A stretch of 20,000 bases of DNA from the IMG/VR virus record IMGVR_UViG_2724679462_000001, one strand, 5' to 3'. The position numbers and the translations under genes are program-made. Origin of the DNA: an uncultured virus (IMG/VR IMGVR_UViG_2724679462_000001) (Duplodnaviria > Heunggongvirae > Uroviricota > Caudoviricetes). How positions within the stretch are numbered: the first letter of the stretch is position 1; the number at the start of each line of letters is the position of its first letter. The notes under the pieces were generated by a model. It was not told where the DNA came from, searched no databases, and saw nothing but the letters and a program-made list of their open reading frames with translations. Positions 1,305-20,000 of the stretch are shown piece after piece.

Positions 1305-1750
1305 CAGACAGCTCCGTTCATAAGATCGAAAGCAAGCTGCGCGAGCGCGAGAATCTCGACCTTGTGTTCGTTGTTGAACTGGTGACTGTCGCCATCCACC
1401 CACTCAGCGACGCCGAGCAGGTTGTCGTAGAAGCCGAGGTCCAGGTCGATGATCACCTGGCCGCACGGATGCACTGCGTGGTAACGCAGGAACCAGAACT
1501 CGCGGACCTGGGCGAGCGCGTGCTTCACGTCGAAGACGACTTGCTCGTTGAAGCCCGCGATCAGCTCCATCACCTGCGGCAGCACGGTGAAGTTGTAGTG
1601 CGTGCTCGGCGCGTCGACTGGCGCCGAGGGGATCGACACGAGTCGCGATGCAGCCAGCGCAACGGCCGTGCCGATGATACGGCCGCGATCGCCCAACGAC
1701 GAAATGGCGGTGTCTGCGCGATTGTAGAAAGAAATGAATTGCGGTTTCAT
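1304..1750 (-). CDS. Hypothetical protein, probable small virion head protein (148 aa)
   Basis: Lies in a tight operon between two probable head genes, is coupled to the next gene by TGATG, and has phage-core codon usage. Function inferred from context only. Confidence 0.7.
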   Translation of the reverse strand: MKPQFISFYNRADTAISSLGDRGRIIGTAVALAASRLVSIPSAPVDAPSTHYNFTVLPQVMELIAGFNEQVVFDVKHALAQVREFWFLRYHAVHPCGQVIIDLDLGFYDNLLGVAEWVDGDSHQFNNEHKVEILALAQLAFDLMNGAV

Positions 1751-1771
1751 GATGTCAGCTCGTGGTTGTGG

Positions 1772-3055: not shown

Positions 3056-3181
3056 GGCGTGCGTCCTTAAAGAGGGAAGTGAAAACTAACCTAGGCTCCT
3101 CATGCTGTGTATTCAGCCAGGAGTCGCTAGTGGTCATAGTGATTACTGGGCTTTCCCTCACGAATTCCCAGCACCGCCACC

Positions 3182-4999: not shown

Positions 5000-5008
5000 A
5001 GCGAGTAA

Positions 5009-5296
5009 ATGATGAAGAAGTTGGTTGACATCCCGATGCGGGATTTGGAGGACCTGCTGGACTGGCACGCTGGTCAGGCAGAGCGTCACGAAAGGCTGGA
5101 GAAGCAGCATACTGAGAAGTATGCGCGGTTTGGAAAGCACGGTGCGTGCATCGTGCGCGGTGACCAGAAGCGGGCTGACTTCCATCGACGAGCGGTGAAA
5201 GTCGTTGCATCGGCCCTGGATGATCGCGCTCTGACTCAGTGCAAGGAGAACTGCACTGTGCCAGCCGGACAGACGTGCTGTGCCGTAACCGCGTGA
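5009..5296 (+). CDS. Hypothetical protein (95 aa)
   Basis: Starts 9 bp after the polymerase stop and ends just before a stem-loop. Cys-rich C-terminus (CKENC...TCC). Confidence 0.6.
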   Translation: MMKKLVDIPMRDLEDLLDWHAGQAERHERLEKQHTEKYARFGKHGACIVRGDQKRADFHRRAVKVVASALDDRALTQCKENCTVPAGQTCCAVTA

Positions 5297-5315
5297 ACCA
5301 AAAAACGCGAAGAGC

Positions 5316-5356
5316 GAACATAGGCCTTCTCCCCTGCGGGAGAGGGTCCTATGTTC
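5316..5356. terminator. Intergenic CATA-stem-loop-TATG element, probable terminator
   Basis: GAACATAGGCCTTCTCCC-CTGC-GGGAGAGGGTCCTATGTTC imperfect inverted repeat between convergent genes, preceded by an A-run. Confidence 0.7.
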
Positions 5357-5386
5357 AGAATCGCGAAAATTCTCGCAGTGGTGTGC

Positions 5387-7120: not shown

Positions 7121-7264
7121 CGCGGACCTCGACGCTCAGTAAAGGGCGTTGCTCTACTGATGACAGCTTAGTGGAGAGACACCAGACGTCAAGGCGAACC
7201 TGACTCCCGGTACGTTGCCGCCTCGCAAAACTCTTACCTAAGGCGCTAAATAAAAGAGCGCAGG

Positions 7265-7296
7265 CATAAAGGCCCGGGCGATCGCCCAGGCATCTA
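7265..7296. terminator. Stem-loop downstream of endolysin, degenerate member of the CATA-stem-loop family
   Basis: A-rich tract, then GCATAAAG-GCCCGGGCGATCGCCCAGGC hairpin, about 35 bp beyond the endolysin stop. Confidence 0.55.
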
Positions 7297-7330
7297 TTTC
7301 GTTCTATCGGACCGACAGCGCCCGCAGTTA

Positions 7331-8152
7331 TTAGCCGAAGATCTGTTTATAACTGTCAGCGAGTCGGCCGTCGTAATTGTTCTGCGCGTGCTGGTTCTTG
7401 CCATTGTACTGATTGGCAAACGTCGTCCAGTCGCGCGCACGGAGCGCCGTGATCATGGCTCCGCCGTTCATGTCTTCCAGGAAGTTGCAGAACGCGTCGA
7501 GCTGGTTCGATTCGCTCACTGCCATCGCGGCCACGTAATCCTCCACCGACCGGTAGCCGGCCTGGATGTAGTAGTAGCCCATGATCTGGAAGAGGCCCCA
7601 GGACGCGGAGCGCATCGCGAGACCCGGTGCAACGCCGTGCTGTTGCAGAATCGCTTCCGCTTGATTCAGACGATCCCACTCTTGCGTGCCGCCGAGATAG
7701 CCGCCCGGATCCGGGTTGATGAGGTTCGGATACTGTGCGACGAGCTGGTTGATCTGCGTCTGCGACATCACGGTCTGCAGCGTGCGATACAACTGATGAC
7801 GCTCGAAGAGGATCGTGCATCGACCATCGTTCAGAAAGCCTGCACCCGAGGTCTCTACTTGACACACGGTTTGTACCGTTGCGACGTCCACACCGAGCCG
7901 ATGACCGGCTTCTTGATAGGCAGCAAGGCTCAGGTACTTCTGCGCGATGAAGGGCTCCAGATAAGCCTGTGTCGCGACGTCATAAATGCCCGTGACCGTG
8001 AGGTGGTTCTTCGACTGGTAGACGCAAAGCGCAGAGACGGATTTCGGACCGAACTGCCCGTCGACAGTGAGATTCGCGCCCGTCTTTTCGTTCAGTGCGC
8101 GTTGGATGAGTTTGGCTTTGGCGGTATTGATATTCGGAGGCAGTGCGCTCAT
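7331..8152 (-). CDS. Modular endolysin: PG-binding domain + DUF3380 N-acetylmuramidase
   Basis: N-terminal LIQRALN...VDGQFGPKS...YQSKNHLTVTGIYD matches PG_binding_1. C-terminal VETSGAGF...ILFERH, SASWGLFQIMG and WTTFANQYNG are DUF3380 motifs. Start moved from the track's GTG at 8236 to the ATG at 8152, which is preceded by AGGA/TGGA. Confidence 0.9.
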   Translation of the reverse strand: MSALPPNINTAKAKLIQRALNEKTGANLTVDGQFGPKSVSALCVYQSKNHLTVTGIYDVATQAYLEPFIAQKYLSLAAYQEAGHRLGVDVATVQTVCQVETSGAGFLNDGRCTILFERHQLYRTLQTVMSQTQINQLVAQYPNLINPDPGGYLGGTQEWDRLNQAEAILQQHGVAPGLAMRSASWGLFQIMGYYYIQAGYRSVEDYVAAMAVSESNQLDAFCNFLEDMNGGAMITALRARDWTTFANQYNGKNQHAQNNYDGRLADSYKQIFG

Positions 8153-8157
8153 GGTGG

Positions 8158-8244
8158 TCCAGTCCTGTGAGTATGCGGCGTTAAACCTCCACCCCAGAAG
8201 CCCAATACGTCGGGCCTCCGGAGTGAAGGTCGTCACAGGATGGA
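8158..8244 (-). promoter_or_regulatory. Structured RNA leader sequestering the endolysin RBS
   Basis: Inner 21-bp stem (8210-8230 with 8185-8205; five G.U pairs, no mismatches on the minus strand). Outer stem TCCATCCTGTGA / TCACAGGA-C-TGGA covers the SD. Confidence 0.65.
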
Positions 8245-8266
8245 TGTGCGACTTTTGAAGCGAGAC

Positions 8267-9040
8267 TTACTTGCCGAAGTAAGCCGTGAGACGCGTGCGA
8301 CCCTTCTCGGTCAGGCCGTATGCGAGCAGCGGCTGGAAGTCGACTTGCTTGAGCACAGCCTGGCGGGACTTCGGATCGGCGAGCGTCTTGAGCAGCGTGA
8401 CGATCTTCTCGAAGCCCTTGCGATGCTCCTTCGAGAGGGGCACGTGTTGCACGAAGCGGAACACATGCGTCTCGCGCAGCGCACCTTCACGATGGTGATG
8501 AAAGAGGGCGAGGATCGCGGTGAGCGTCGGGCGGAAGTCGGCTTCGAGGTTGTTGATCGCCGAGATAAGCGCCTGGTAGAAGTTGACCTGCTGTTGCGTA
8601 CCGTCCTTCACGGAGATCGGCATGCCGGGCTTCATCTTGTCCAGATACTCGTTGATCGTGTTGAGCACGATCTTCGCCGGAATCGAGGCGTCCTTCATCA
8701 GGTTCTCGATCTGCCGCTTCACTTCTTCGGCCGTGCTGGTGGCGCCGACCACAGCGACTGATACGGGCGCCTGAACCGGAGCCTCGGGCGCGGGTGCCGG
8801 CGTCGGAGCCGGTGCAACTACGGGAGCTGGGGAGACGAGCGCGCCGGTGGCGCTACCGATCGCCGCTTGCGCGCTAGCGGCGGCCTTCTCAGCACTCGCG
8901 GCAGCGTCTTGCTGCGTGGCTGCACCGGTCATCTGCTGGGCGTCCGACTGGGTGATGGCGGGCGTCGGCGGCGTTTCCGGCGTGGTACCGGTCGCCGCTG
9001 CGTCCTGCTGGTCCTGCTGGTTCTCTTGAGCGTCGCTCAT
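8267..9040 (-). CDS. Hypothetical core-like phage protein with Ala/Pro/Gln-rich N-terminus (257 aa)
   Basis: AAGGAAAG SD, strong codon bias, directly downstream of the RNAP subunit gene. Low-complexity N-terminal ~100 aa followed by a helical-looking domain. Confidence 0.8.
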   Translation of the reverse strand: MSDAQENQQDQQDAAATGTTPETPPTPAITQSDAQQMTGAATQQDAAASAEKAAASAQAAIGSATGALVSPAPVVAPAPTPAPAPEAPVQAPVSVAVVGATSTAEEVKRQIENLMKDASIPAKIVLNTINEYLDKMKPGMPISVKDGTQQQVNFYQALISAINNLEADFRPTLTAILALFHHHREGALRETHVFRFVQHVPLSKEHRKGFEKIVTLLKTLADPKSRQAVLKQVDFQPLLAYGLTEKGRTRLTAYFGK

Positions 9041-9065
9041 GGTGCTTTCCTTTCGAGGAGAGAGG

Positions 9066-10388
9066 TTAGATAAGGGCGGTCTTGTAGTTCATGCGAGCCA
9101 CCTGCAGCGCGGACCCGTGCATCTTTTTCATAAATAAAAGCAAGAAGATGTTTCCGTACTCGGCGATGGCAGCAGAGAGAGCGGTCGGACTGAGCGCGAG
9201 CTTCTCGCCCACGCATACAGCGCAGTAATCCGTCTTTTCCAGCTTGCAAAACATGGAGCTACGCAAGAGGATTTTCTTGCCCATGTACTGGCCGGCAGCC
9301 TCCAGGTCCGGGATCTTTTCGTGACCGTCTTGCGTCACCACGGAGAATCCCGGCAGCTTGTGGACGGAGTCGTTGTCGACATGGATCTCCAGACCGAGGC
9401 GCGCTCCGCAGTCTTCTTGCGTCACCGTCATGTTCGACGACGCTCGCAGCAGCCACTTCACGGCCTCACCGCCGAGCATGGTTTCCGCACCACGGTTGAA
9501 CGAGCCCGCGCGAAGCGAGTTGTTCATCGCTGGGAACTTGTTGATGTCCCAACCTTCGGAGAGGGAGTTCTGGATGAGATCGACTTCGACGCCATCGCCC
9601 AGGCCCGACTCCGCGCCGTGCATCAGGAACAGCTTCGAGCGCACGACGTCGTAGGACTTCTTGGTGATGAGGAAGTTGGCACCTTCATCGTCCTTCAGAT
9701 ACTCCTTGTCGAATTCGATGAGCTTCTTCATGATGCCCGCGATCACTGCCGGATCATTCAAGCGATCCTTGTTCTCTTCAAGCAGCTTCTTACGCAGCGC
9801 GAGAAGGCCGGGTGGCGCTTGCATCGTCTTGCGCGTCACGGCAGGTACGCACAACTGAGTGAAGCCCGCGAGGTAAAACATGGCGTCGCAGAACTTCAGG
9901 TACTCGCTAACGTAAATCGGCGCTACCTGTGCCTCCGCCTCCGGCACGGGATCGCCGGACTTAGGCTCGTCTGCCAGCCGCTTGATCACGTAGGCTTCCA
10001 ACTTGCCAGCATCGACGCGACCGGTCACAAACGGCACCTTTTTGCCGAATGGCCAGATGATCGCGGTGAAGTTGAAGAGCACGTTGCCGTAGGTGGTCTT
10101 CACGTCCTCGTAGGCGTTCGGAGTCTCGCCAACCTTCAGCTCGATGTGATCCTTGATCTTGAGGGGCGGCTCTTTCGGGTCCGCGTCCTCGATCAGCGTC
10201 AATGCATTGCCTTTCTCCGGATCCACGAAGAAATGTCCAGACGGTGTTTGGACTATGCGATAAGGATAGGCATCATTCTTCCATGCCTCCATCCCTTCGC
10301 GGATCAGACTGAACGCAGAGATCACCCACGCGCGCCGTCGATACTCGTCGGCCTGCATGGCCTTGAGGAAGAACTCTCTTTTTGTCAT
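9066..10388 (-). CDS. Phage multisubunit RNA polymerase, beta' C-terminal subunit (phiKZ gp80-like, probably virion RNAP)
   Basis: Bridge-helix-like RAGSFNRGAETMLGGE, zinc-site residues EDCG, RSSMFC and YCAVCVG, and trigger-loop-like MKKMHG, in the order found in RpoC. Only 440 aa and lacks NADFDGD. GAGGT SD. Confidence 0.88.
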   Translation of the reverse strand: MTKREFFLKAMQADEYRRRAWVISAFSLIREGMEAWKNDAYPYRIVQTPSGHFFVDPEKGNALTLIEDADPKEPPLKIKDHIELKVGETPNAYEDVKTTYGNVLFNFTAIIWPFGKKVPFVTGRVDAGKLEAYVIKRLADEPKSGDPVPEAEAQVAPIYVSEYLKFCDAMFYLAGFTQLCVPAVTRKTMQAPPGLLALRKKLLEENKDRLNDPAVIAGIMKKLIEFDKEYLKDDEGANFLITKKSYDVVRSKLFLMHGAESGLGDGVEVDLIQNSLSEGWDINKFPAMNNSLRAGSFNRGAETMLGGEAVKWLLRASSNMTVTQEDCGARLGLEIHVDNDSVHKLPGFSVVTQDGHEKIPDLEAAGQYMGKKILLRSSMFCKLEKTDYCAVCVGEKLALSPTALSAAIAEYGNIFLLLFMKKMHGSALQVARMNYKTALI

Positions 10389-10398
10389 ATTGACCTCA

Positions 10399-11139
10399 CT
10401 ATTCGTAGAACCAGTCCGAATGAGCCGGGTCGGCGGACCTTGCGCGCCGGTCGACGGTGTCTCGCGACAAGCTCAAAGCTTGCGACGCCGCGCGCAGGCT
10501 TTCATACCTAGTGCCCTTCACGTTCACCGGTCGGCTAGTCTTACGACCCAAGTTCCTCATGCGCTCGATATGCTCTTCGGAGTAAGTCCGGTCGAGGTTA
10601 GCTCTGGAGATCTTCTGCTTATGATCGTCAGTCAGGCTTTTCCCAGTTCGCGCCCGACGCAGCTTCTCAATGTGTTCCGGCGTCTTCTTATATCCCTTGA
10701 GGGCCTCGCTAATGTTGGCCTTGTGTTCCGCCGATTTCGCGACGCCGAGACCACGACCAACGGCTGACGCCCTCATTCGCGCAAGCGACCTTTCTGAGAG
10801 GACCAAGCCCTTCATTGGATTCCGAGCGTTCGAACCCGCGTTGAATACACGACCAGCGACGAAGTACCGATTCAAGAATTCTTGTTCGCGGTCGTACGCA
10901 TCTTCTCGCGTGTCTGTTAGCACCGACTTTATTCTGATTGCTGGACTTTCTCGATAGGCTTCCTGGAGTGCCGCACAATGGTGCGCACCTCTTCGAAGGT
11001 TCCACTCATGTTGCCGGATCCGAGTGTGTAGATCACCCGAGCTACCGACATACATGAGTCCGCTCGGCTCATGGATGATGATGTAGACGCCACAATACGA
11101 AGTCCTGGGTGGGACGTCGGCGAAGTCACTGAGGTCCAT
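10399..11139 (-). CDS. Free-standing GIY-YIG homing endonuclease with NUMOD3 repeats and C-terminal HTH
   Basis: GVYIIIHEPSGLMYVGSS motif, conserved R (TRIRQH), E (DREQEFL) and FN. Four NUMOD3-like units (SAEHKANISEA, TPEHIEKLRRA, TDDHKQKISRA, SEEHIERMR). YESLRAASQALSLSRDTV HTH. Start placed at ATG 11139 after GGGGA. Confidence 0.9.
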   Translation of the reverse strand: MDLSDFADVPPRTSYCGVYIIIHEPSGLMYVGSSGDLHTRIRQHEWNLRRGAHHCAALQEAYRESPAIRIKSVLTDTREDAYDREQEFLNRYFVAGRVFNAGSNARNPMKGLVLSERSLARMRASAVGRGLGVAKSAEHKANISEALKGYKKTPEHIEKLRRARTGKSLTDDHKQKISRANLDRTYSEEHIERMRNLGRKTSRPVNVKGTRYESLRAASQALSLSRDTVDRRARSADPAHSDWFYE

Positions 11140-11989
11140 GCTTGATCCCCGTCGTTTCCTTGATCTCGCACTTGAGCAGCAAGTCACCGATCGCAATGTC
11201 GGCCTTGGTCAGGATGTCGAGGTCGTTGATGAAGTCCTCAATGTGCGCCTTGATGACGCTGCGCGGGCTCTCGAAGCCGTCGGTCGAGATGATCGCCATC
11301 GACACGAGGTTGGCTGCGATGTTCTGCACCGGCATGCCTTCGAACGCCCGGCCCACGAGGTTGGCGTAGATCATGAACGGGTGGCCGAAGTCGATGCCGC
11401 TTGCGATGTAGTGGTCCAGGATCAGGTCAAGGCCACCTATGTGATTCTTGAAGCGACGGTACGCATCGAGGTACTTCTGACGAGCCGCTGCGTGATCTTC
11501 GGGTTCCTCCAGCTCAACCCGATCGCTCGTGATCTCGATGATTTTCCGAATCGTGCGTTGACTCACGGCGTGGATGTCCACCAACAGCTCTTCAGCCGTG
11601 TGACTGGTGGTCACCGAGAGGACTTCAGCGAGCAGCTCCTCCGGATGCAAGTCCATCGCGCAGTGCTGAAGGATGATGTGCGGATCCTGATACGACTCGA
11701 TCGCATGAAGTCCGGAGAGCAGCGTCGTGAGATGACTCACCCGTGCCTCGTCATTCGGCTCGACACCCATTGCCTTGAGCAGCGTGACGAGAATGTCTCG
11801 GGTAGTGTCGTAGATCCGCTGGACGGTCTGACCTTGATCGGTCGTGTCGTCCGTCATCAGGATCTCGACGAAATCGTCCGAGTAGTCCGGCAGTTCCAGC
11901 GCATCCAGAGCAGCGTGCGCTTCTTCAATTGTTTGGGTGAATTCGGGCGAGGCTGCCCCCGCCAGATAGTCCCGCAAGATGTCAATCAT
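11126..11989 (-). CDS. Hypothetical core-like phage protein (287 aa), first gene of the RNAP-subunit operon
   Basis: Acidic protein with phage-core codon bias beginning at MIDILRDYL (ATG 11989, GGGA upstream). The track's extra 43 codons lie in AT-rich intergenic DNA. Confidence 0.78.
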   Translation of the reverse strand: MIDILRDYLAGAASPEFTQTIEEAHAALDALELPDYSDDFVEILMTDDTTDQGQTVQRIYDTTRDILVTLLKAMGVEPNDEARVSHLTTLLSGLHAIESYQDPHIILQHCAMDLHPEELLAEVLSVTTSHTAEELLVDIHAVSQRTIRKIIEITSDRVELEEPEDHAAARQKYLDAYRRFKNHIGGLDLILDHYIASGIDFGHPFMIYANLVGRAFEGMPVQNIAANLVSMAIISTDGFESPRSVIKAHIEDFINDLDILTKADIAIGDLLLKCEIKETTGIKHGPQ

Positions 11990-12143
11990 AAATGGCGAGT
12001 CCCGAAATAGAAAAATACCGACGGTATTAATGCTGTAGCGAAAACCATCGACGCCAACCCGATCTGATCGAGCCAGGGAAATGGAACGGTCAAATAATGG
12101 ATCGCAGAAACAGTACAACTAACTTTCTCAGGACGTTTCACTT

Positions 12144-12869
12144 ATGACCAAGAAGAGTCAAGCGCGCATTCAGCGCGACATCGCAGAAGGCAAGCGTAAG
12201 CCTGCCGCTCGTTCGGTAAACATGTCGGTGAACCAGCCGATCAAGCCGACGCAGAAGGCCGATGGCTCGTTCTCGATGTCGGCAGCAGATCGGATCCTCG
12301 CCGAGTGCCGTGCGGGCGCGGACATCCCGAAGCACGAGCAGAACACCTGCTGGGACGATCTGACCGGCGTCTACCAGCAAATGTCGGGCATGCTCCTTCG
12401 CCACACCGAGATTTCCCTGGTGCTGAACGACAACGAGCTGATGTCCTTCATCGAGGACAAGGACACGTTCAAGACCAACGTCAAGCTGTTTGCAAGCGAT
12501 CTGCGCAAACTGAGCGACGAGCTGCAGCAGCTGCGCGCGCTGCACGCTGGCAAGGTCGGTGGCAGCGAAGACCCGGACGAAGTCCTGCACTCGATCCATA
12601 TCTTCGAGCAGTACAACCTGTGGATGCAGAAGCACGACGGCGTCCTCATGCCGACGGTCTACCACATCCTCGAAGCGACGAACCAGGCTGAGCTTGCTCG
12701 CGGTCGCGCTCACTCGGCAAACGGTCAACTGAACGGCGATGCGCCGGAGCTCGCTGTCGATCCCGCTGTGCTCGACGTGAACCAGATCACCGATGTGACC
12801 TTCAACGACGAGAACGTCGGTCAGGTCGTCGGCGTGCCGGCCACGGCCGACGAAGTCGCTCCCCAGTAA
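12144..12869 (+). CDS. Hypothetical core-like phage protein (241 aa), basic N-terminus, coiled-coil centre, acidic tail
   Basis: AGGA SD, strong codon bias, divergent from 11989. Confidence 0.82.
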   Translation: MTKKSQARIQRDIAEGKRKPAARSVNMSVNQPIKPTQKADGSFSMSAADRILAECRAGADIPKHEQNTCWDDLTGVYQQMSGMLLRHTEISLVLNDNELMSFIEDKDTFKTNVKLFASDLRKLSDELQQLRALHAGKVGGSEDPDEVLHSIHIFEQYNLWMQKHDGVLMPTVYHILEATNQAELARGRAHSANGQLNGDAPELAVDPAVLDVNQITDVTFNDENVGQVVGVPATADEVAPQ

Positions 12870-12890
12870 TCGAAAGAAGAGAGGTTAGTT

Positions 12891-14441
12891 GTGAGTGTTC
12901 ACAAAGAACATCAACATCCTGGAATGATTCTCCAGGACGTCGCTCCGGCAGACGCCGTGCTCGGCATGGACACGATCGAAACGGAGTACCAGGAACCGGC
13001 CGTGTCGACGCCGGAAGAAAAGCAGGAAGACGTCGAGATCGCCGGCATCGGTCACCTGCCGCAATCGGAAACCACTCAACAGGACGCTGAGGTGTTCTTC
13101 CCGCTCGACGGGGAGTGGGACACCAACGGCACGTTCCTCATCGGCCAGGCCGACACGCAAGATCGTGCGTCGCGTGCGATTGCCGCGATGCCGAACCTGG
13201 ATCTGACCGATACGGAAAGCGGTCGTGAATGGGTCGACTACATGCGCGAAAGCATGATCAGCGCACCCAACAAGGATCAATGGCGTGCCGCGGTCGATCG
13301 CGACGGCAGCGAATGGCGTCAGGGTGTTAAGTCCGAGCGCGGCAATCTCGCCATGGGTGCGATGTCGTTCAAGAACGTGTCGGGCGAGCTGCTCACAGGC
13401 GAAAAGGCCGTCCTGCAAGTTCGGGCGCTGCTCGGCCTGGGTAGCACCATCCAGGTTCCGCTCTGGCACTCGGGCTTTCACATCACCATCAAGGCCCCGT
13501 CGGAGATCGCACTGCTCGAACTCAACCGTCGCCTCATGGACGAGAAGATCGTCATGGGTCGCACCACCAACGGTCTTGCGTTTGCGAACACGGCTTCTTA
13601 TTTGAACGGCGGGCTGCTGGACTTCGCAATGGAACACGTGTACGACACGTCGCTCCAGGAGAAGGACATGGCTCGCATCAAGGCCATGATCGAGACGCCT
13701 GACCTGCCGCTGCTGTTCTGGGGCCTCGCTTGTGCGATCTGGCCGCGCGGTTTCCAGTACGCTCGTCCGTACCTCGATCCGATCACGAACGAGGAAAAGA
13801 TGCTGCGCGAGAAGCTCGCGGTTGGCAAGCTCCTCTTCGTGGACACCAAGGCACTCACGCCGTGGCAGATCTCGCACATGGCGCATCGTGGCAGCGGTAC
13901 GATGACGGCCGATGCAGTGAAGCGTTACAAGACGGAGTTCACGGTCGGCCAGCCGCGTCGCGTTCAGTTGTCGGAACACATCGCCGTCACGCTCAAGGTG
14001 CCGTCGGCTAACGACTACGTGATCTCCGGTTACAAGTGGATCGGCGAAATCACGCGCGTGGTCGACGAAGCGTTCCAGTTGCCGCCGGAAGATCAGCGCC
14101 GCACGAACTTCATCGTGCAGCACGGCAAGGCGACGAACATGCGTCAGTACATCCACTGGGTCGCCGAGATTCATCCGGGTGCCGCGACCATTACTGATCG
14201 TGAGACCATCGAGAAGATCATCGACGATCTGTCCAGCAACGACGAGGTGCGCCGCAAGTACTTCGACGAGGTGAAGAAGTTCATCGATGATTCGACGATG
14301 GCCGTGATCGCTACGCCGACGGCGAACACGAAGGAAGAGAAGCAGTTGCCGCGCTTCCCGCATCTGTTGCCGATGAATGTCGAGCAGACTTTTTTTACCC
14401 TGCTCGAACAGAAAATCAGCCAGATCTCCCTCCGCAACTAA
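12891..14441 (+). CDS. Core-like jumbo-phage protein (516 aa), possible tail/baseplate assembly chaperone (G-like)
   Basis: GAGGT SD before GTG and strong codon bias. Slippery heptamer 15 codons before the stop. The chaperone role is inferred only from the frameshift architecture. Confidence 0.8.
   Translation: MSVHKEHQHPGMILQDVAPADAVLGMDTIETEYQEPAVSTPEEKQEDVEIAGIGHLPQSETTQQDAEVFFPLDGEWDTNGTFLIGQADTQDRASRAIAAMPNLDLTDTESGREWVDYMRESMISAPNKDQWRAAVDRDGSEWRQGVKSERGNLAMGAMSFKNVSGELLTGEKAVLQVRALLGLGSTIQVPLWHSGFHITIKAPSEIALLELNRRLMDEKIVMGRTTNGLAFANTASYLNGGLLDFAMEHVYDTSLQEKDMARIKAMIETPDLPLLFWGLACAIWPRGFQYARPYLDPITNEEKMLREKLAVGKLLFVDTKALTPWQISHMAHRGSGTMTADAVKRYKTEFTVGQPRRVQLSEHIAVTLKVPSANDYVISGYKWIGEITRVVDEAFQLPPEDQRRTNFIVQHGKATNMRQYIHWVAEIHPGAATITDRETIEKIIDDLSSNDEVRRKYFDEVKKFIDDSTMAVIATPTANTKEEKQLPRFPHLLPMNVEQTFFTLLEQKISQISLRN
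14390..14396 (+). other. Candidate -1 programmed ribosomal frameshift site T TTT TTT
   Basis: ACT TTT TTT ACC is in X XXY YYZ phase. The -1 frame is open from here into ORF 14447..14866. Confidence 0.65.
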
Positions 14442-14446
14442 GACCG

Positions 14447-14866
14447 TTGCATGTCGCGCAGCCAGACTTTGGCGAGCAAGTCGAGGACGAGAATCCCCTG
14501 AGGGCCGCAATGGAGCGCGGACCCACGGTGCTCAACTCCTCGGACGTGCAGCTGGCGCTGCGCGACTGCTACGAAACCACCTACCGCATTTACGACCATT
14601 CGCGGTCCGGGCACAATGACGCGCTCGCACTGGTCGCGATGCGTGAGGCGGAAGATAGTTCGTCGGGTGGTCTTCTGTACGAGCAGATTCGGCGATTCGA
14701 AGAGCGGCAAGTGTACAAGCACTTCGGTCTGAACCTGGTCCAGTTCCTCGAGCTGCCGTCAGACATCGTGCGGTTCGTTTTGGAGATGTCGCTCAAGCGT
14801 CAGCAGAGCAATGCGAAGACGCAGGAAGACGTGGTTGATGAAATTCAGCGCATGGCGGAGGGGTGA
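14447..14866 (+). CDS. Hypothetical protein (139 aa), probably the -1 frameshift extension (T-like) of 12891..14441
   Basis: Good codon bias, but a TTG start with no SD. The segment YKHFGLNLVQFLELP resembles the helix-turn-'FLxLP' pattern of tail-chaperone T domains and T4 gp51-like proteins (by eye). Confidence 0.72.
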   Translation: MHVAQPDFGEQVEDENPLRAAMERGPTVLNSSDVQLALRDCYETTYRIYDHSRSGHNDALALVAMREAEDSSSGGLLYEQIRRFEERQVYKHFGLNLVQFLELPSDIVRFVLEMSLKRQQSNAKTQEDVVDEIQRMAEG

Positions 14867-15312
14867 TGATCGAGCAGGTGGCTGTGCAAGACATCTTCGC
14901 TTCTGCCTGTCAGGCGCTGGTTGTGCCGGTCAACGTAGTCGGTACAATGGGCAAGGGTTTAGCGAAAGCCTTCGCTCATCGGTATCCAGGTCTTGAAGCA
15001 GCGTATCGCGATGCGTGCCGCCGGCGGGTGTTTTCAACGCGCGGTCTGTTTGTATGGAAAGCGGAGAACGGGAAACTGATCGTCTGCTTTCCGACCAAGC
15101 GTCACTGGGCCCACCCATCTCGGCTTCACTGGATCGACGAAGGTCTGAAACGACTGGCGCGCGATTTCGAGAGGTATCAGATCCGGTCTATCGCCATGCC
15201 GATGATCGGATGCGGGGAGGGCAAGTTGCGATGGGATGACGTCTATCCCTTGGTGATGGAATGGCTCGACCCTTTGGAGCTGCGTGTACGGATTTGTTTG
15301 TCGCCACGCTGA
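14863..15312 (+). CDS. Macrodomain ADP-ribosylhydrolase, DarG/TARG1(Poa1p)-type
   Basis: DIF...LVVPVNVVGTMGKGLAKAF, FPTKRHW (catalytic Lys position) and SIAMPMIGCGEGKLRW. GGAGG SD, start overlapping the upstream stop. Confidence 0.88.
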   Translation: MMIEQVAVQDIFASACQALVVPVNVVGTMGKGLAKAFAHRYPGLEAAYRDACRRRVFSTRGLFVWKAENGKLIVCFPTKRHWAHPSRLHWIDEGLKRLARDFERYQIRSIAMPMIGCGEGKLRWDDVYPLVMEWLDPLELRVRICLSPR

Positions 15313-15392
15313 AACCCAAAAAAAAAGAAGGAAGGTCATAACGGGAGGGCGCGAGCCCTCCCTCTATGCCGTCTTCCTTATAATTACTTCAG
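15279..15392 (+). repeat. 114-bp imperfect direct repeat, left copy
   Basis: About 80% identical by eye to 18033-18146. Comprises the macrodomain gene 3' end, an A9 run, a stem-loop and TTACTTCAG. Confidence 0.9.
15328..15379. terminator. CATA-stem-loop-TATG element, probable terminator
   Basis: AAGGAAGGTCATAAC-GGGAGGGC-GCGA-GCCCTCCC-TCTATGCCGTCTTCCTT, with a GNRA loop and an A9 run on the left, between convergent genes. Confidence 0.75.
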
Positions 15393-15396
15393 TATG

Positions 15397-16767
15397 TTAC
15401 TCGTCGGCCTTGTCTAGCGTGGTTGGTGGAATGCCTGCAAAGTTTGAGAAGATGCCGCACTCTTGATCGTACGACAGCCGAACCGCACCGATCGGACCGT
15501 ATTGATTTTTGGCGACGATTAGTTCTGCGACCCCTATATCAGGAGTGTCGGGGTTGTAGTACTCGTCGCGGTAAACGAAGGCCAGCAGGTCGGACTCATC
15601 TCCTAGTTCGTGCCAATTGCCAAGATCTGACCGGATGGGCCGTTTGTTTGGGCGAGCTTCCAACAACCGTGTGACCGGGGCAGTGACGATAATGGCGCAA
15701 TTGAGTTCCCTGGCAAGGCTCTTAAGGGAACGCGCTACTGCGTCCTCATGTGCAACGTTACCCGGGTCGACTTTTATATACGTGATGGAGTCTACTAGGA
15801 CTAAGCCGAGTGCGCCGAATTGCTTCTTTGCCGCTAAACAACTGTCCCGCAAGGAAGCTAAGTTTAGCTCAGTGGTGTCATCTAACAGCATGTGACACTC
15901 CTGTAATTTCTGTATGGCATGTACGGCGCGGCTCCAATCTTCGTCGAGAAGTCGTCCGCGCAAGAACCGAGAGTAAGAGATTTGGCCCGTGATCGTGAGA
16001 AGCCTATGACCTACTTCCTTCTTCCCTATTTTCGTCGAGAAAATAAGTACGGGCATACCCATCTCGGCTGCTACATAGCCTGCTATTCCGAGTGACAAGT
16101 TCGTCTTGCCCATACCGGGCCGGGACGCGATGGTGATAAGTTGCCCCGCGTGGAGGCCGTCAATTGTTCTGTCCACGTCAACAAGGCCCGTCGAGATGCC
16201 ACCAATATCAGCGTTAGAATGATATTGTCGATCGAGTCCTTCTACCATATCCTCCAAGGTTTCTTGGAGGGTGCTCAGCTCGCCGAGTTGGCAACGTCGC
16301 TCTTTCCGCTCTCTCATCTCGTCCACGACCGCACGGATGCCTTGTGCGACGTCGCGCCAAGCAATATCTTCGTTTTGCGATTCGGAGATCGACACTGCAT
16401 CTTTCGGAAGACCTTGGATACCCATTAAGGGCTCTTCGGCTAGGTCTGCGGGTCGCACAAAGATGGGGATTACACGGGCGGTATCATCTTCGTGCCTGCG
16501 CAGAGCAGTATCCAGTTCCTTTTCGTAGCAGTATCCAGAGGCTATGAAGCTAGGGCTGATTAAAGGAAGAATGATGTCCGCGCTCTCGATGTTGCGGTCA
16601 ATCTCGGCCTTCCAGTTAGTGCCGGGGGTTATCCTACGGTCTGACCAGCTCGATATTTTTCCGCGCCGCTTGAGAGACGCGAGTTGTTCTTCGAGACTTT
16701 CCTTGTAGCGCTCGTCTTTGTGCGAATAGCTGATAAAGACGGAGATTTGATTCGGGCTATCGGTCAT
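15397..16767 (-). CDS. TIR domain fused to a degenerate DnaB C-terminal (RecA-fold) helicase domain (456 aa)
   Basis: TIR: VFISYSHKD, WSDRRITPG, LISPSFIASGYCYEKEL, VIPIFVRP. DnaB_C: GISTG, SRPGMGKT, DEDW, RSLKSLAREL, KRP-SDL, FVYRDEYY, AELIVAK, GPIGAVRL. Confidence 0.92.
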   Translation of the reverse strand: MTDSPNQISVFISYSHKDERYKESLEEQLASLKRRGKISSWSDRRITPGTNWKAEIDRNIESADIILPLISPSFIASGYCYEKELDTALRRHEDDTARVIPIFVRPADLAEEPLMGIQGLPKDAVSISESQNEDIAWRDVAQGIRAVVDEMRERKERRCQLGELSTLQETLEDMVEGLDRQYHSNADIGGISTGLVDVDRTIDGLHAGQLITIASRPGMGKTNLSLGIAGYVAAEMGMPVLIFSTKIGKKEVGHRLLTITGQISYSRFLRGRLLDEDWSRAVHAIQKLQECHMLLDDTTELNLASLRDSCLAAKKQFGALGLVLVDSITYIKVDPGNVAHEDAVARSLKSLARELNCAIIVTAPVTRLLEARPNKRPIRSDLGNWHELGDESDLLAFVYRDEYYNPDTPDIGVAELIVAKNQYGPIGAVRLSYDQECGIFSNFAGIPPTTLDKADE

Positions 16768-17050
16768 GGCGTCGACATGTTGGTTCGTATGGGCGTACTT
16801 TACCCCTTATCCGCTTGGGGCAACGGGCTCAAGTCACATCAAGAACGATAGCAAGCGACCAGCTCATCGCTTCTGAACGACGGCTTAGATCGATACCCCG
16901 AGGCGCAGCCCCATTGCGGCGAGCGAGGTTGACGACAGTTGATCGGAGAAATCCGTTGCTTGATCGAAGCGGCCGCTCAAATGACACAGGCAACGCAATG
17001 CCGAAAGGCGATAACGGGCCCGTTTCTTTCGTTGCCCGCCGCCGGCTGCA

Positions 17051-17959
17051 TCATGGGCGCAGTGCGCCCCTCCCGAGCATGCCCATCAGCGTCTTCGCGT
17101 TTCGCTGACCCTGGTCTTCCCAGTTATTGTTGAACACCACGTGTGTGCTTTCAACCGCCTTCGAGATGTTGATGATCTGACTCGACAATCCCGCCAGCTC
17201 TTCCTCGTTATAGTCGTAGTTGAATCGTGATGACGCCGCCGACGCGTCCTTGATATTCCACGTTTCGTGGTTGCGGCCGTGCAGTCGAATCAGAGCCAGC
17301 TTCGGGTTCGTGACTTCCCACACCGCCGGGATCGAATTGGCAGAAGTATTCGGCTCGTCGACTACGACATTCACAAGGCCGCGCTCGCGCTCCAGCGCAA
17401 GGGTCGATGCGGTCGCTTTCTCCGAAAACCAAGAGCGATGCCGAAATTCGACGGCGAGCGTGAAGCCTTCCATCACGTCCGCGCAGTGCTCGACGTGCGC
17501 GCGGCCGTCTTCGTTATTCACGAGCCAAGGGGCAAATTGGAAGTGCACCGCGCCAAGCTTTCCGGCCTGGCGCAGCGGTTCAATCGCCTCCACGTATCGG
17601 CGCCACAGCTCGCGAAGGATTTCGCCGGGTGTGTCCTTGTAGTACAGGTTCTTTTTGTCGCTGGGCGGGAGCGCGGCCTGGATGTCTTTCGGCAGCTTCG
17701 CGCGATCTGTCTGGTGTCCCGTGAACAGCCTAAACGCTTTGATATTGAAAACGAAATGGTCGGGCGTACGCTGAGTCCAAAGGACCGAGTTGGACCCGTT
17801 CGGCATCGCGTAGTAGCTGGAATCGACTTCGACCAGAGGAAATTGCGACGCATAGAATCGCAGGCGGGCTTCGGCACTCGTGCAGCCAGGCGGATAGAAC
17901 CGCTTGCTGGCAATTAGAGTAGGGTCTGTCCAACTGGCAGTGCCGACTCGGATGTTCAT
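17051..17959 (-). CDS. DUF72 (YecE-like) TIM-barrel protein (302 aa)
   Basis: IRVGTASW, LRFYASQFPLVEVDSSYYAMP, FNIKAF, FQFAPW, AVEFRHRSW, IRLHGRN, YDYNEEEL and HVVFNN are DUF72 motifs. Confidence 0.9.
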   Translation of the reverse strand: MNIRVGTASWTDPTLIASKRFYPPGCTSAEARLRFYASQFPLVEVDSSYYAMPNGSNSVLWTQRTPDHFVFNIKAFRLFTGHQTDRAKLPKDIQAALPPSDKKNLYYKDTPGEILRELWRRYVEAIEPLRQAGKLGAVHFQFAPWLVNNEDGRAHVEHCADVMEGFTLAVEFRHRSWFSEKATASTLALERERGLVNVVVDEPNTSANSIPAVWEVTNPKLALIRLHGRNHETWNIKDASAASSRFNYDYNEEELAGLSSQIINISKAVESTHVVFNNNWEDQGQRNAKTLMGMLGRGALRP

Positions 17960-18032
17960 GGCGATGTGGGATCGGGAGGAATGTCTGACATACTAGCAAC
18001 ACCTTCGACAAGCGATCTTCTACGCGCTCGAG

Positions 18033-18146
18033 GCTGCGGGTCCGTATTTGCCTTTCGCCAAGCTGAGAAGCAAAAAAAAAGAAGTATCCGACATATCGGG
18101 AGGGCGCCAGCCCTCCCTTTATGCCGTCTTCCTTTCATTACTTCAG
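18033..18146 (+). repeat. 114-bp imperfect direct repeat, right copy (contains orphan macrodomain 3' end LRVRICLSPS*)
   Basis: Aligns to 15279-15392. CTG CGG GTC CGT ATT TGC CTT TCG CCA AGC TGA versus CTG CGT GTA CGG ATT TGT TTG TCG CCA CGC TGA. Confidence 0.9.
18090..18128. terminator. CATA-stem-loop-TATG element, probable terminator of the 57-aa gene
   Basis: GACATATC-GGGAGGGC-GCCA-GCCCTCCC-TTTATGCCGTC, with an A9 run at 18072-18080. Confidence 0.72.
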
Positions 18147-18311
18147 CGACGTCATTGCGCGCTGCGCCTGCAGGTTGTGTCCAGCGTGATCCGCGATGAC
18201 GAGTGAGAGACCGCTGAGGATGAAGAACACGGTGATCAGGAAGCCGCGCTTCGCAGCGCCGTTGTTTGCTTTCTTGCCCGAGTGGTAATTGTTGTTTGCA
18301 AAGTTGATCAT
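18138..18311 (-). CDS. Small single-pass membrane protein (57 aa)
   Basis: Below the track's length cutoff. MINFANNNYHSGKKANNGAAKRGFLITVFFILSGLSLVIADHAGHNLQAQRAMTSLK*. GGAG SD 6 nt before ATG, followed by a stem-loop. Confidence 0.72.
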   Translation of the reverse strand: MINFANNNYHSGKKANNGAAKRGFLITVFFILSGLSLVIADHAGHNLQAQRAMTSLK

Positions 18312-18366
18312 GATTCGCTCCGAAGTAGATTGGTTTTGCTATCGATCTCTCGATGGCTTCGGGCGA

Positions 18367-18393
18367 GTCATATGTGTCTGAATTTGTTTTGAA
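18367..18393 (-). promoter_or_regulatory. Possible phage early (virion RNAP) promoter
   Basis: The minus strand reads TTCAAAACAAATTCAGACACATATGAC: an AT-rich tract plus CATATGAC, 6/8 to the phiKZ early consensus TATATTAC, about 55 nt upstream of the 57-aa gene. Single occurrence in the window. Confidence 0.45.
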
Positions 18394-18418
18394 TCCCGAT
18401 CTGGCAAGTTGCTACAAT
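18389..18418 (+). promoter_or_regulatory. Putative sigma70 promoter for hns
   Basis: TTGAAT-18 bp-TACAAT with an extended -10 TG, 24 bp upstream of the ATG. Confidence 0.5.
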
Positions 18419-18442
18419 CCCGCGTTCTTCTGGAGAAACAGC

Positions 18443-18763
18443 ATGGCAATGCAACCGAGTGCGCGGCTCGACAAACTGCGCGAACAATTGGCGAAGGTGC
18501 AGGGGCGGATCGCTAAGGAAGAAGGGGTGCGACGGACAGCCGCGCTTGAGGAAATCAGTTCGCTGATGGCTCAGTACGGACTGACGGTCGCGGACATCGG
18601 GGTGAAAGGAAAACGAGGGCCGGCGAAGAAGACGAAGGCTGGGGCAAAGAAGCCAGTCGCTGTGAAGTATCAGGATCCGAAGACAGGTGCGACGTGGAGT
18701 GGGCGCGGTCGTGAGCCGCTCTGGATCAAGGGCAAGAGGCGCGAGCGTTTCCTTATCGCATGA
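18443..18763 (+). CDS. hns: H-NS family nucleoid-associated protein (106 aa, Burkholderia Bv3F-like)
   Basis: N-terminal coiled coil, MAQYGLTVADI, and DNA-binding motif KYQDPKTGATWSGRGREPLWI. Start at 18443 after GGAGA rather than 18353. Confidence 0.92.
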   Translation: MAMQPSARLDKLREQLAKVQGRIAKEEGVRRTAALEEISSLMAQYGLTVADIGVKGKRGPAKKTKAGAKKPVAVKYQDPKTGATWSGRGREPLWIKGKRRERFLIA

Positions 18764-18776
18764 CGTTCAGTCATCG

Positions 18777-19160
18777 TCACTTCGCCGGAGCATAACGCGA
18801 TGGACCTGACACGCCTCCGCCATTTCCTGGCTGACAAACATACAGCGTCCTTCCTATACGTACCGAGTCTCCGTGGACGCCTCCGGCACTGTTTGGGTAG
18901 GCGCAATTCAAGTCCGGGTTTATACAGTACCAAGGCGAGTCTTCCCCCGGCGAACCAGGTCCCGGCATACAGCGACGAGATGCGCACAAATTGCTTTCGG
19001 CGGTCACGTTGGGATAATTTGGCGGCATTCCGTCTGAGCACACTTGCCCGTTCTTCAGGTTCTGACTTTTAGCCTCGCCCGAGACGCCACCCAAGAGCAA
19101 CACACCGAACCAGATTAGGGACGCTGACGACTTACAAATCTGGTTCCGATGCATGGCCAT
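18777..19160 (-). CDS. Putative secreted Cys-rich protein (127 aa)
   Basis: Hydrophobic leader SLIWFGVLLLGGVSGEAKS, six Cys in the mature part, Gly/Pro-rich. Confidence 0.6.
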   Translation of the reverse strand: MAMHRNQICKSSASLIWFGVLLLGGVSGEAKSQNLKNGQVCSDGMPPNYPNVTAESNLCASRRCMPGPGSPGEDSPWYCINPDLNCAYPNSAGGVHGDSVRIGRTLYVCQPGNGGGVSGPSRYAPAK

Positions 19161-19291
19161 TCCCCGAAAGACGGAAAAATTTTTGTGCGCAAATGAAGTT
19201 AAGGCTAACTATGTCCTTCCCGCCAGAGATTTCCGGATCACAAGGGTTGACCCCTAGCGAACAGGATGAAGGTCGATCTGACATAAATGAA

Positions 19292-19492
19292 TCAGCCCTT
19301 TTCGGACGATCGCGCCAGATTTTCCCACCGCCGCTGCAACAGGTCGATCACATTTTGCTCGCAGGCTCGCCGGGCTGTTGCCATCTCGAAATACTCCTCG
19401 ATCGCTGTTTCGACCTGGGCCGGATCGTCCCCGACGATCTGATTCCATGGGCCGACGCTGCCGGTGAGATAAAAACCATCTGCGCGGTCTCC
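19292..19492 (-). pseudogene. Possible 3' gene remnant
   Basis: A minus-strand frame with coding-like codon use (GDRADGFYLTGSVGPWNQIVGDDPAQVETAIEEYFEMATARRACEQNVIDLLQRRWENLARSSEKG*) begins right after a TAA with no start codon at its 5' end. Family not recognised. Confidence 0.3.
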
Positions 19493-19517
19493 TTAGGGTT
19501 CTCCCGCGTTGGTCGCT

Positions 19518-20000
19518 CTAATGCGGAATTGGATATGAGCAGAGATAGACTCGCCCCGAGGGGGCGAGTCTATCCGCTGGAGTGGCTAAATTAACGCTCA
19601 TCTCCTTGTATGTGCACCATTCCGACGGGCAATTATCACCCTGGCATTCTCGATTAATGTCAGTTCGGGAGGCGGGCACGGCAGGATATCCCGACTTCCG
19701 ATTGTCCCAGCAGTTTGCAATCGTGCCTTCGCGACAAAGGTCCGTGCCTTTAACCTGATATGCTGGAGTCGACCCCGACCAAGCAGTTGAAGCCCAATCG
19801 CGCCCTGCCCAATTCGCCTCGGTATACGTATAAACCCAATCCAACTTCCTTTCCGACGGGGCCGTTGTTTCGGGGACTTGTGCTGCAACGGGTGCGGGCG
19901 CAGGAGCTTGTGCAGTAGTGGGTGCGGACGCAGGAGCTTGTGCGGTAGTGGGTGCGGACGCAGGAGCTTGTGCAGTAGTGGGAGCGGACGCAGGAGCTTG
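19518..20000 (-). CDS. C-terminal part of a probable surface/secreted protein: Pro/Ala/Thr repeat linker + Cys/Trp-rich domain (5' end outside window)
   Basis: The frame of track ORF 19518..19844 stays open to the window edge: (QAPASAPTTA)n-QAPAPAPVAAQVPETTAPSERKLDWVYTYTEANWAGRDW. Six Cys in the terminal domain. Confidence 0.7.
   Translation of the reverse strand, partial: QAPASAPTTAQAPASAPTTAQAPASAPTTAQAPAPAPVAAQVPETTAPSERKLDWVYTYTEANWAGRDWASTAWSGSTPAYQVKGTDLCREGTIANCWDNRKSGYPAVPASRTDINRECQGDNCPSEWCTYKEMSVNLATPADRLAPSGRVYLCSYPIPH
19890..20000. repeat. 30-bp coding tandem repeat (at least 3.7 units, truncated by the window edge)
   Basis: GGGTGCGGACGCAGGAGCTTGTGCAGTAGT units with single substitutions, encoding QAPASAPTTA on the minus strand. 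Confidence 0.92.

Follow-up and report, generated by a model that had tools for sequence, protein, structure and literature searches.

A TIR domain fused to a degenerate DnaB helicase domain: a candidate one-gene defence protein on a jumbo phage contig

Why would a TIR domain be joined to a replicative helicase domain that has lost the residues of its motor? We addressed this question for a gene at positions 15397-16767 (minus strand) of a 20,000-nucleotide stretch of DNA, hereafter the window, taken from the uncultured virus record IMGVR_UViG_2724679462_000001. The window is the final 20 kb of a 74-kb contig (C339) in a 9.38-Mb bacterial assembly whose overall G+C content is 62.8%. An original prediction, made from the letters of this DNA, had read the gene product as a TIR domain fused to a catalytically dead DnaB, and had proposed that the pseudo-helicase baits the helicase loader of an invader, or co-assembles with a helicase ring, and thereby clusters the TIR domains. 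Our follow-up points to a pseudo-helicase that occupies the sensor or scaffold slot of a known TIR-effector design, which would be new, and the protein is most likely a one-gene anti-phage suicide switch.

The domain swap at this locus is confirmed. The open reading frame (ORF) is intact, as had been claimed, and encodes 456 amino acids from an ATG start with zero internal stops. Pfam TIR_2 matched residues 10-114 (E 1e-18, 68.4 bits against a cut-off of 28), the Pfam TIR family matched at 36.9 bits (cut-off 21.3), and the PADLOC ThsB1 model PDLC00420 matched residues 9-157 at 5.8e-43. DnaB_C (PF03796) followed at residues 190-442, aligned over profile positions 1-255 of 255 (E 2e-58, 198 bits). 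PF00772, the N-terminal, primase-binding domain of DnaB, had no Pfam match in the 456-residue protein, and the TIR domain occupies its place; among the matches listed, PF00772 was present in all real DnaBs of at least 430 residues. In an AlphaFold2 model built with 39 family sequences as input (mean predicted local distance difference test score, pLDDT, 87.7), a beta-alpha TIR unit at residues 9-130 is followed by a long helix (133-159), a low-confidence hinge, the linker helix (167-183) and a RecA-type domain (190-445). The top Foldseek matches of the model were DnaB chains, and the best for the helicase domain was the E. coli DnaB C-terminal domain 6kza_B, with a template modelling (TM) score of 0.89 normalised to the target. 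Alignments to DnaB chains begin at fusion residues 156-168, and the linker helix LQETLEDMVEGLDRQY spans residues 167-182. The claim that a TIR domain has replaced the DnaB N-terminal domain while the linker helix and the full RecA fold remain was thus borne out. The nearest real DnaB to the helicase domain is proteobacterial (42% identity), and the fusion protein is 38% identical to the DnaB of the host assembly (L001) over 333 residues.

The residue states of the helicase domain were read from alignments to two solved DnaB chains, 6t66_A (Vibrio cholerae) and 2vye_A, and to the host DnaB. All motif strings quoted in the original prediction were located in the protein: CYEKEL at 80-85, SRPGMGKT at 215-222, FSTKI at 243-247, DEDW at 275-278, LVDSITYI at 324-331, RSLKSLAREL at 346-355, TAPVTR at 362-367, SDLGNWH at 380-386, YRDEYY at 399-404 and AKNQYGP at 419-425. 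The E. coli DnaB motifs that it had used for comparison agree with the DnaBs aligned here, and each substitution it had listed (FSTKI, DSITY, APVTR, SDLGNWH and KNQYG) was recovered. Walker A (SRPGMGKT) is kept with Lys221, as is the Walker B Asp326, where vdsity aligns to vdylql. The catalytic Glu is replaced by Lys246 (ifstki aligned to ifslem) and the H3 Gln by Pro364 (apvtr aligned to sqlnr). The Arg-Glu-Ser-Gly of the H4 loop, which binds single-stranded DNA, has become Gly-Asn-Trp-His at residues 383-386 (sdlgnwh aligned to sdlresg), and the arginine finger has become Gln422 (aknqygp aligned to gkqrngp). In the TIR domain, the motif SGYCYEKEL, put forward earlier as the catalytic Glu motif, is present, with the correction that the aligned residue is Glu84 of the K-E-L segment, not Glu82. 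Glu84 aligns with the Glu of the conserved C-x-x-E-L motif in solved TIR chains of plant L6 and of the CRISPR-associated protein Cat1, which we take to be their catalytic residue. From this conserved Glu we infer that the fusion protein may cleave nicotinamide adenine dinucleotide (NAD+), that is, act as an NADase.

The original prediction had suggested that further TIR_2 and DnaB_C fusions, with the same residues lost, should be sought among homologues. In a homologue search that covered 5.8 billion proteins, the same architecture was found in about 40 protein clusters at 36-71% identity, and the key-residue losses recur across what proved to be a monophyletic family. The clusters come from Burkholderia, Paraburkholderia, Caballeronia, Achromobacter, Massilia, Noviherbaspirillum, Marinobacter and metagenomes; additional fusion loci were found in Ralstonia, Shewanella, Methylophaga, Rhodocyclaceae and a Nitrospirota genome. 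Because it recurs in some 40 clusters, the architecture is far beyond chance. We then compared 40 fusions with 136 full-length DnaBs, both sets drawn from the homologue searches, in one family alignment. All 136 DnaBs are invariant at seven positions (E252, Q335, Q374, R393, S395, G396 and R432 in host numbering). Six of the seven are kept in at most four of the 40 fusions, and Q335 is kept in nine. The catalytic Glu survives in 1/40 fusions, the H3 Gln in 3/40 and the arginine finger in 4/40, each against 136/136 DnaBs, and the H4 Arg, again present in 136/136 DnaBs, is absent from the six commonest fusion residue states, which together cover 37/40. The H4 loop of the DnaBs has Arg, Ser and Gly in 136/136 and Glu in 134/136. 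The Walker B Asp is kept in 40/40 fusions. The residues that have taken over are themselves conserved in the fusions: Lys or Arg at the catalytic Glu (32/40), Ser for Tyr333 (37/40), Tyr for Leu336 (31/40), Trp for Ser395 (27/40) and Asn for Gln431 (39/40). Since the lost positions carry new family-specific residues, they speak for remodelling and not for decay.

The TIR domain is the better conserved half of the protein, with 17 positions, Glu84 among them, invariant in 39/39 family members. For the closest pair for which DNA was available (the window and locus L093), the nonsynonymous divergence (dN) was 0.139 in the TIR domain and 0.225 in DnaB_C, with the synonymous divergence (dS) saturated. 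Saturation left the NG86 estimate of dS undefined in 18 of 20 pairwise domain comparisons, so that no exact dN/dS ratio, only the dN of the closest pair, is quotable. Both domains are under purifying selection. The original prediction had stated that neutral decay in homologues would count against it; the low dN of the closest pair, at saturated dS, excludes neutral decay.

The phylogeny places the fusions in a single clade. A FastTree phylogeny (LG+gamma; 177 tips, 273 columns from the C-terminal domain) was rooted on one cyanobacterial DnaB, because the midpoint root had fallen inside the long fusion branch. In this tree, the DnaB_C domain of the fusions branches from within DnaB diversity, all 40 fusions form one clade (support 0.766), and 39 degenerate fusions form a clade (0.998) that is sister to the remaining member, P0040. 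The median root-to-tip distance is 2.5 for the fusions and 1.4 for the DnaBs. P0040, a 486-residue protein from a metagenome contig of 204,844 bases, reads FSMEM, DYLQL, SQLNR and KQR, and is the only fusion that keeps all of the catalytic Glu, the H3 Gln and the arginine finger. Retention of catalytic residues in homologues, which had been named as another outcome that would weigh against the prediction, is therefore confined to this basal protein and does not extend to the other 39. In the simplest history, the fusion arose once, with a helicase domain that still worked, and the motor was then lost, also once. P0040 is a candidate living intermediate.

The modules with which each half of the protein is combined elsewhere give a further view of its likely division of labour. 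Relatives of this TIR subtype were 37-53% identical over about 150 residues, mostly 45-53%. Such TIR-only loci numbered 72 from genome contigs and four from viral contigs, of which 45/76 were taken; after five short TIR-only ORFs, three piecewise matches and two ORFs with internal stops had been dropped, 35 ORFs were scanned. A recognised module was joined to the TIR domain in 24 of them: Roc-COR in eight, TPR with NB-ARC or similar in seven, nSTAND NTPase 4 in three, CHAT in two, and AAA_35, AAA_22, GUN4 and FGE-sulfatase in one each, with no partner recognised in the other 11. Conflict systems commonly follow this plan, with the TIR domain acting as effector and a variable partner serving as sensor or switch. 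Because this TIR subtype joins Roc-COR, NB-ARC-type and nSTAND4 modules in its relatives, DnaB_C would sit in the slot of the sensor or switch NTPase. The converse suggestion, that other effectors might be fused to degenerate DnaB_C, found no support in searches with residues 150-456: the hits that ranked above real DnaBs (250-798 amino acids) were all TIR fusions, some of them truncated. All 120 listed DnaB_C proteins longer than 798 residues were intein-bearing DnaBs, and the short DnaB_C-only matches were truncated real DnaBs or 5'-truncated fusions.

How did such a gene come to lie on a phage contig? Positions 1-15312 of the window hold phiKZ-type genes, including those for a DNA polymerase (phrog_3011, 1.6e-216), an RNA polymerase beta subunit (phrog_2962, 2.2e-142) and an endolysin. 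The nearest phage is Burkholderia phage FLC9, with 29-58% protein identity and a gene order conserved through the macro gene that ends at 15312; FLC9 genes beyond that point map to the end of another contig, C275. The fusion gene is missing from FLC9. It was also absent from 50,697 phage records, in which the coverage among the matches listed was that of the DnaB domain; four loci on IMG/VR viral contigs were all TIR-only matches, and a megablast search of window positions 12000-20000 against phages gave no match. The fusion gene and a second gene, encoding a DUF72 protein, form a cassette that is bounded by direct repeats and situated in the accessory region of this phage (Table 1). The two repeats are 82% identical, each carries a G+C-rich hairpin, and they are the sole two copies in the 9.38-Mb assembly; 56 nt of the repeat match the intergenic spot after gp364 of FLC9 at 80%. 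The repeat appears to be a bidirectional terminator that belonged to the phage and was duplicated on either side of the 2.75-kb insert, and a single crossover with a circular donor would yield an insert flanked in this way. The G+C content at third codon positions (GC3) is 0.586 in the fusion gene and 0.77-0.80 in three phage core genes; set against these values and against the 62.8% G+C of the assembly, the gene is foreign to both. Among the closest relatives of the window protein (70-71% identity), the one with a named source is bacterial, a Burkholderia gladioli protein. By these comparisons the fusion is a foreign cassette and not a jumbo-phage invention. The earlier claim of carriage by a jumbo phage thus stands as to the location, on a phiKZ-like contig, but the gene itself belongs to a foreign cassette of bacterial type.

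A Logan contig of sequencing run X1 covers positions 14000-19800 in one piece with zero differences, which lends support to the cassette junctions, although this run may be the assembly's own source. Metagenome contigs X2-X4 gave partial coverage, with no junction bridged. No RNA dataset was listed among the sequencing runs that matched the window, and consensus scans for promoters and terminators returned nothing decisive. The DUF72 gene was considered as a partner of the fusion and rejected, as it adjoins the fusion in 0/9 bacterial loci; none of the ten phage records that it matched is a jumbo phage of the FLC9/phiKZ-like group.

Table 1. Coordinates of the fusion gene, its parts and the surrounding cassette within the window
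Feature	Position	Strand	Basis or remark
TIR-pseudoDnaB_C gene, 456 aa	15397..16767	-	intact ORF, Pfam TIR_2 + DnaB_C, AlphaFold2 mean pLDDT 87.7
TIR domain, residues ~8-130	16378..16746	-	Pfam TIR_2, PADLOC ThsB1 model, Glu84 alignment
Glu84 codon, inside C-Y-E-K-E-L motif	16516-16518	-	aligned to L6/Cat1; invariant in 39/39
DnaB linker helix, residues 167-182, after long helix 133-159	16222..16269	-	DnaB alignments, model
Degenerate DnaB_C (RecA-fold) domain, residues 190-442	15442..16200	-	Pfam, alignments, Foldseek
Left copy of ~100-nt direct repeat	15279..15379		G+C-rich hairpin between convergent macro and TIR-DnaB genes
Right copy of direct repeat	18033..18134		bounds 2.75-kb cassette
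DUF72 gene, second gene of cassette	17051..17959	-	Pfam DUF72 5e-54

In bacteria the gene is rare. It is carried by 3/395 other genomes of the window's family and by 0/45 of its genus. We examined nine bacterial loci, seven from the homologue search and two from a scan of 396 family genomes, and found no neighbour gene that recurs across them. Of the 88 ORFs in these neighbourhoods, 59 were submitted to PADLOC after removal of those whose Pfam matches were plainly housekeeping, and strong defence neighbours emerged in 3/9 loci, all within 6 kb of the fusion. At the Massilia locus, Drt5 (7e-222) and two kinase genes adjoin the fusion; at the Nitrospirota locus there are a Ppl-like ATPase (1e-45) and an Mrr nuclease, and three integrase genes abut; at locus G221 there is PD-T7-4 (6e-67). 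Integrases or transposases occur at 4/9 loci, and in a genome of the genus Ralstonia (G142) the fusion gene has a G+C content of 0.475 in a region of 0.615. This patchy distribution describes a rare, horizontally moving and self-sufficient gene, and fits a defence role without proving it. At one of the nine loci, in a Burkholderiales metagenome bin (L006, 707-2455), the fusion frame extends to 582 amino acids with DUF3775 (1.5e-13) after DnaB_C, a possible three-domain variant, and adjoins a TacA-GNAT toxin-antitoxin pair.

DnaB rings are held together by the docking of the linker helix onto the C-terminal domain of the neighbouring subunit, and ATP is bound at the subunit interfaces, where the neighbour supplies the arginine finger. 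Bacterial TIR NADases switch on when their TIR domains are forced into ordered contacts. Against this background we propose that the fusion is a one-protein immune device of the abortive-infection type. The C-terminal two thirds would be a DnaB domain without ATP hydrolysis, arginine finger or ssDNA-binding loop. Because the RecA fold, the linker helix and usually the P-loop are kept while the motor residues are lost, this part is better read as a ring-forming or ring-switching scaffold and sensor than as a motor. Judging from its anatomy, the protein would still oligomerise, assembling like the C-terminal tier of DnaB, with the TIR domain standing in for the DnaB collar. The remodelled and conserved interface pocket may control the assembly state, and the TIR collar would read that state. 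An infection cue, probably linked to replication, would change the assembly of the scaffold so that TIR contacts form and NAD+ is cleaved, and the infected cell would no longer support the invader. In the window the cassette would have entered a bidirectional terminator native to the resident phiKZ-like jumbo phage, where it would protect the cell that carries this phage from competing phages. We regard the general mechanism, a pseudo-helicase assembly scaffold or sensor driving a TIR NADase, taken together with a defence role, as evenly poised between right and wrong.

Several observations weigh against this proposal. The Walker A Lys is kept in 33/40 fusions and lost in 7/40, so that nucleotide binding need not matter. 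A constitutive ring would cluster the TIR domains permanently, so a control step must exist. NAD+ depletion would harm the carrier phage too. Highest among the PADLOC matches is a Thoeris ThsB model, which would suggest that the protein makes a signal instead of depleting NAD+. Finally, the search for defence islands around homologues, which the original prediction had recommended, gave a divided answer: beside the three loci with strong defence matches, 6/9 have no recognised defence gene nearby, and the island signal is moderate.

What the scaffold would sense is a separate matter, and here the bait idea of the original prediction can be weighed. The loaders lambda P, DnaC and DciA grip the module formed by the linker helix and the docking helix. 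As an integrated decoy, the pseudo-DnaB would mimic the surface by which loaders and inhibitors of phages or plasmids (lambda P, DnaC-like or DciA-like proteins) grip the host helicase, and their binding would open or reshape the ring and fire the TIR NADase. The retention of the linker helix and the whole C-terminal fold, alongside the loss of catalytic and DNA-contact residues, is what such a decoy would look like; among solved structures the nearest chains belong to DnaB C-terminal domains, some of them in entries whose titles name complexes with lambda P, DnaC and DciA (9oa1, 6kza, 8a3v); the domain derives from a proteobacterial DnaB; and temperate Burkholderia and Pseudomonas phages have DnaB-type helicases of their own. 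However, the root-to-tip distances, longer than those of the DnaBs, and the new conserved residues at the ATP site fit a new ligand or an assembly switch equally well, no conserved phage partner is known, and the decoy would need to avoid the loader of its own hosts, which is presumably DciA. We therefore think the decoy doubtful, and we are just as hesitant about its extension, in which the decoy was captured by the resident jumbo phage to exclude competitors that need the host replisome, which the jumbo phage itself does not need. A different output is conceivable if the TIR domain, under pseudo-helicase sensing, makes an ADP-ribose-derived signal to which an unlinked effector elsewhere in the genome responds, as in Thoeris. 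The strong match of the TIR region to the ThsB1 model argues for such a signal generator, but a ThsA-like gene with SIR2, SLOG or membrane-macro domains is adjacent in 0/9 bacterial loci and is not found in the window, the macro gene next to the fusion belongs to the phage core and is shared with the fusion-less FLC9, and this TIR subtype lies mostly at the effector end of STAND and Roc-COR proteins. On balance this seems improbable.

The two remaining explanations give the TIR domain, or the gene, a lesser part. A poison subunit would co-assemble with host or competitor DnaB into mixed, stalled rings and block replication, the TIR domain being an added effector or a substitute for the collar. 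The ring-contact linker helix, the retained fold and the resemblance to host DnaB would permit this, yet a constitutive poison would be toxic to the bacterial chromosomes that carry the fusion, and the invariant Glu84 shows that the enzyme matters; we rate this lower again. Least probable of all in our view is that the gene has nothing to do with defence and encodes a phage replication helicase with an odd N-terminus, or is a functionless passenger of the cassette. It lies on a phage contig, its PHROG matches are DnaB-like replicative helicases, and group 1 jumbo phages encode divergent DnaBs according to one report (PMC7824862). Against a replicative or idle role stand the loss of the catalytic Glu, the arginine finger and the DNA loop, the absence of the fusion from FLC9 and all the phage records searched, the intact ORF, and the low dN and 70-71% identity to the nearest bacterial homologues. 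The phage, moreover, has a separate DnaB-like frame: on C275 (11259-12206, minus strand; locus L100) a 535-residue frame weakly matches the DnaB-like phrog_19 (4e-11). This frame probably encodes the divergent replicative helicase that belongs to the phage itself, in agreement with what that report describes for group 1 jumbo phages.

The proposed scaffold-driven TIR NADase can be set beside systems already described. TIR-STAND (Avs-type), TIR-SAVED, TIR-STING, SPARTA and Cat1 proteins resemble the fusion in having an N-terminal TIR domain with the Glu aligned to L6 and Cat1, and in being encoded by a single gene in variable regions; activation by assembly is established for TIR effectors of this kind. 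The fusion differs from them in its partner, an SF4 helicase domain (DnaB_C) with dead motifs in place of STAND, SAVED, STING or Argonaute. SIR2-HerA and DUF4297-HerA (Nezha) are two-gene systems that combine a HerA/FtsK-type ATPase with a SIR2 effector. The likeness lies in the pairing of an effector that consumes NAD+ with a P-loop ATPase that forms rings, whereas the fusion is one polypeptide with a DnaB/RecA-type fold, a TIR effector and lost ATPase residues. With DnaB itself the fusion shares the full DnaB_C, the linker helix, Walker A, the Walker B Asp and the fold; it lacks the N-terminal domain, has replaced the catalytic Glu, the H3 Gln, the H4 loop and the arginine finger, and is rare (3/395 family genomes) and additional to a normal dnaB. 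Its TIR domain matches the ThsB1 model of Thoeris, but it has no ThsA partner in 10/10 loci and carries a 300-residue pseudo-helicase. The nearest precedent for the helicase half comes from a 2026 survey (PMC13712802), which describes DnaB_C proteins encoded beside type XI-like retron reverse transcriptases in Bacteroidota and Bacillota. These lie, like the fusion, in putative defence loci, but are separate ORFs with no TIR domain; their position beside such reverse transcriptases shows that DnaB_C has been recruited to defence-type loci in another form. In the full-text literature, which leaves subscription-only papers and supplements outside its coverage, we found no description of a TIR-DnaB fusion, in agreement with the original prediction, and nothing relevant on defence systems triggered by helicase loaders.

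Were the fusion an immune device, the pseudo-helicase would join the sensor and scaffold modules that drive TIR NADases. The family would then offer a natural series, from the motif-intact basal P0040 to the 39 dead-motor members, that shows a housekeeping motor becoming an immune scaffold. Should the decoy be true, bacterial immunity would have helicase loading as a target open to direct test, and the protein would be to bacteria what integrated-decoy receptors are to plants, directed at a conserved step in the replication of invaders.

The macro-domain gene (14863-15312, plus strand) is the immediate neighbour of the inserted TIR gene; it is a core gene of the phiKZ group, and FLC9 carries two tandem copies of it. 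Its product matches the DarG macrodomain model (2.8e-46) with no other domain, and may be a counter-defence enzyme that removes ADP-ribose. A role as ThsA-like or antidote partner of the fusion was rejected as a main explanation, because FLC9 has the gene in synteny but not the fusion. At the Methylophaga locus L010, the fusion is followed 1.1 kb downstream by an ADP-ribosylglycohydrolase gene (4194-5132; 7.5e-29) and then by a NERD nuclease, which leaves the partner idea alive as a side remark. Counting the window's macro gene, an ADP-ribose-processing enzyme is found near the fusion in 2/10 loci.

Other genes of the window and its neighbouring contigs deserve brief mention. At 10399-11196 (minus strand), a free-standing GIY-YIG/NUMOD3 homing endonuclease gene (Pfam 1.5e-10; phrog_314, 2.2e-26) lies between the RNA polymerase beta gene and the next conserved gene; in FLC9 the homologues of these two conserved genes, gp357 and gp358, directly abut one another. 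An H-NS-like protein (C-terminal H-NS domain, 1.4e-12) is encoded at 18353-18763 (plus strand) in the phage accessory region and has several host paralogues at 33-42% identity. At the end of the window, a contig break splits a membrane protein with a tandem repeat rich in Pro, Ala and Thr (19518-20000, minus strand, and positions 13785-14312 of locus L095 on C445), and through these two halves C339 is connected with the 14.3-kb contig C445. That a phiKZ-like jumbo phage next to partition genes holds a cassette bounded by repeats bears on two points, the route by which large phages of lytic type gain defence genes of host type and the possible persistence of some such phages as episomes. Contig C445 encodes ParA- and ParB-like partition proteins and a MarR-type regulator; it terminates in a repeat, present in many copies and common to many contig ends, that is probably an insertion sequence. 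The join of C339 to C445 with its partition genes is a hint of episomal persistence of the jumbo phage in this strain.

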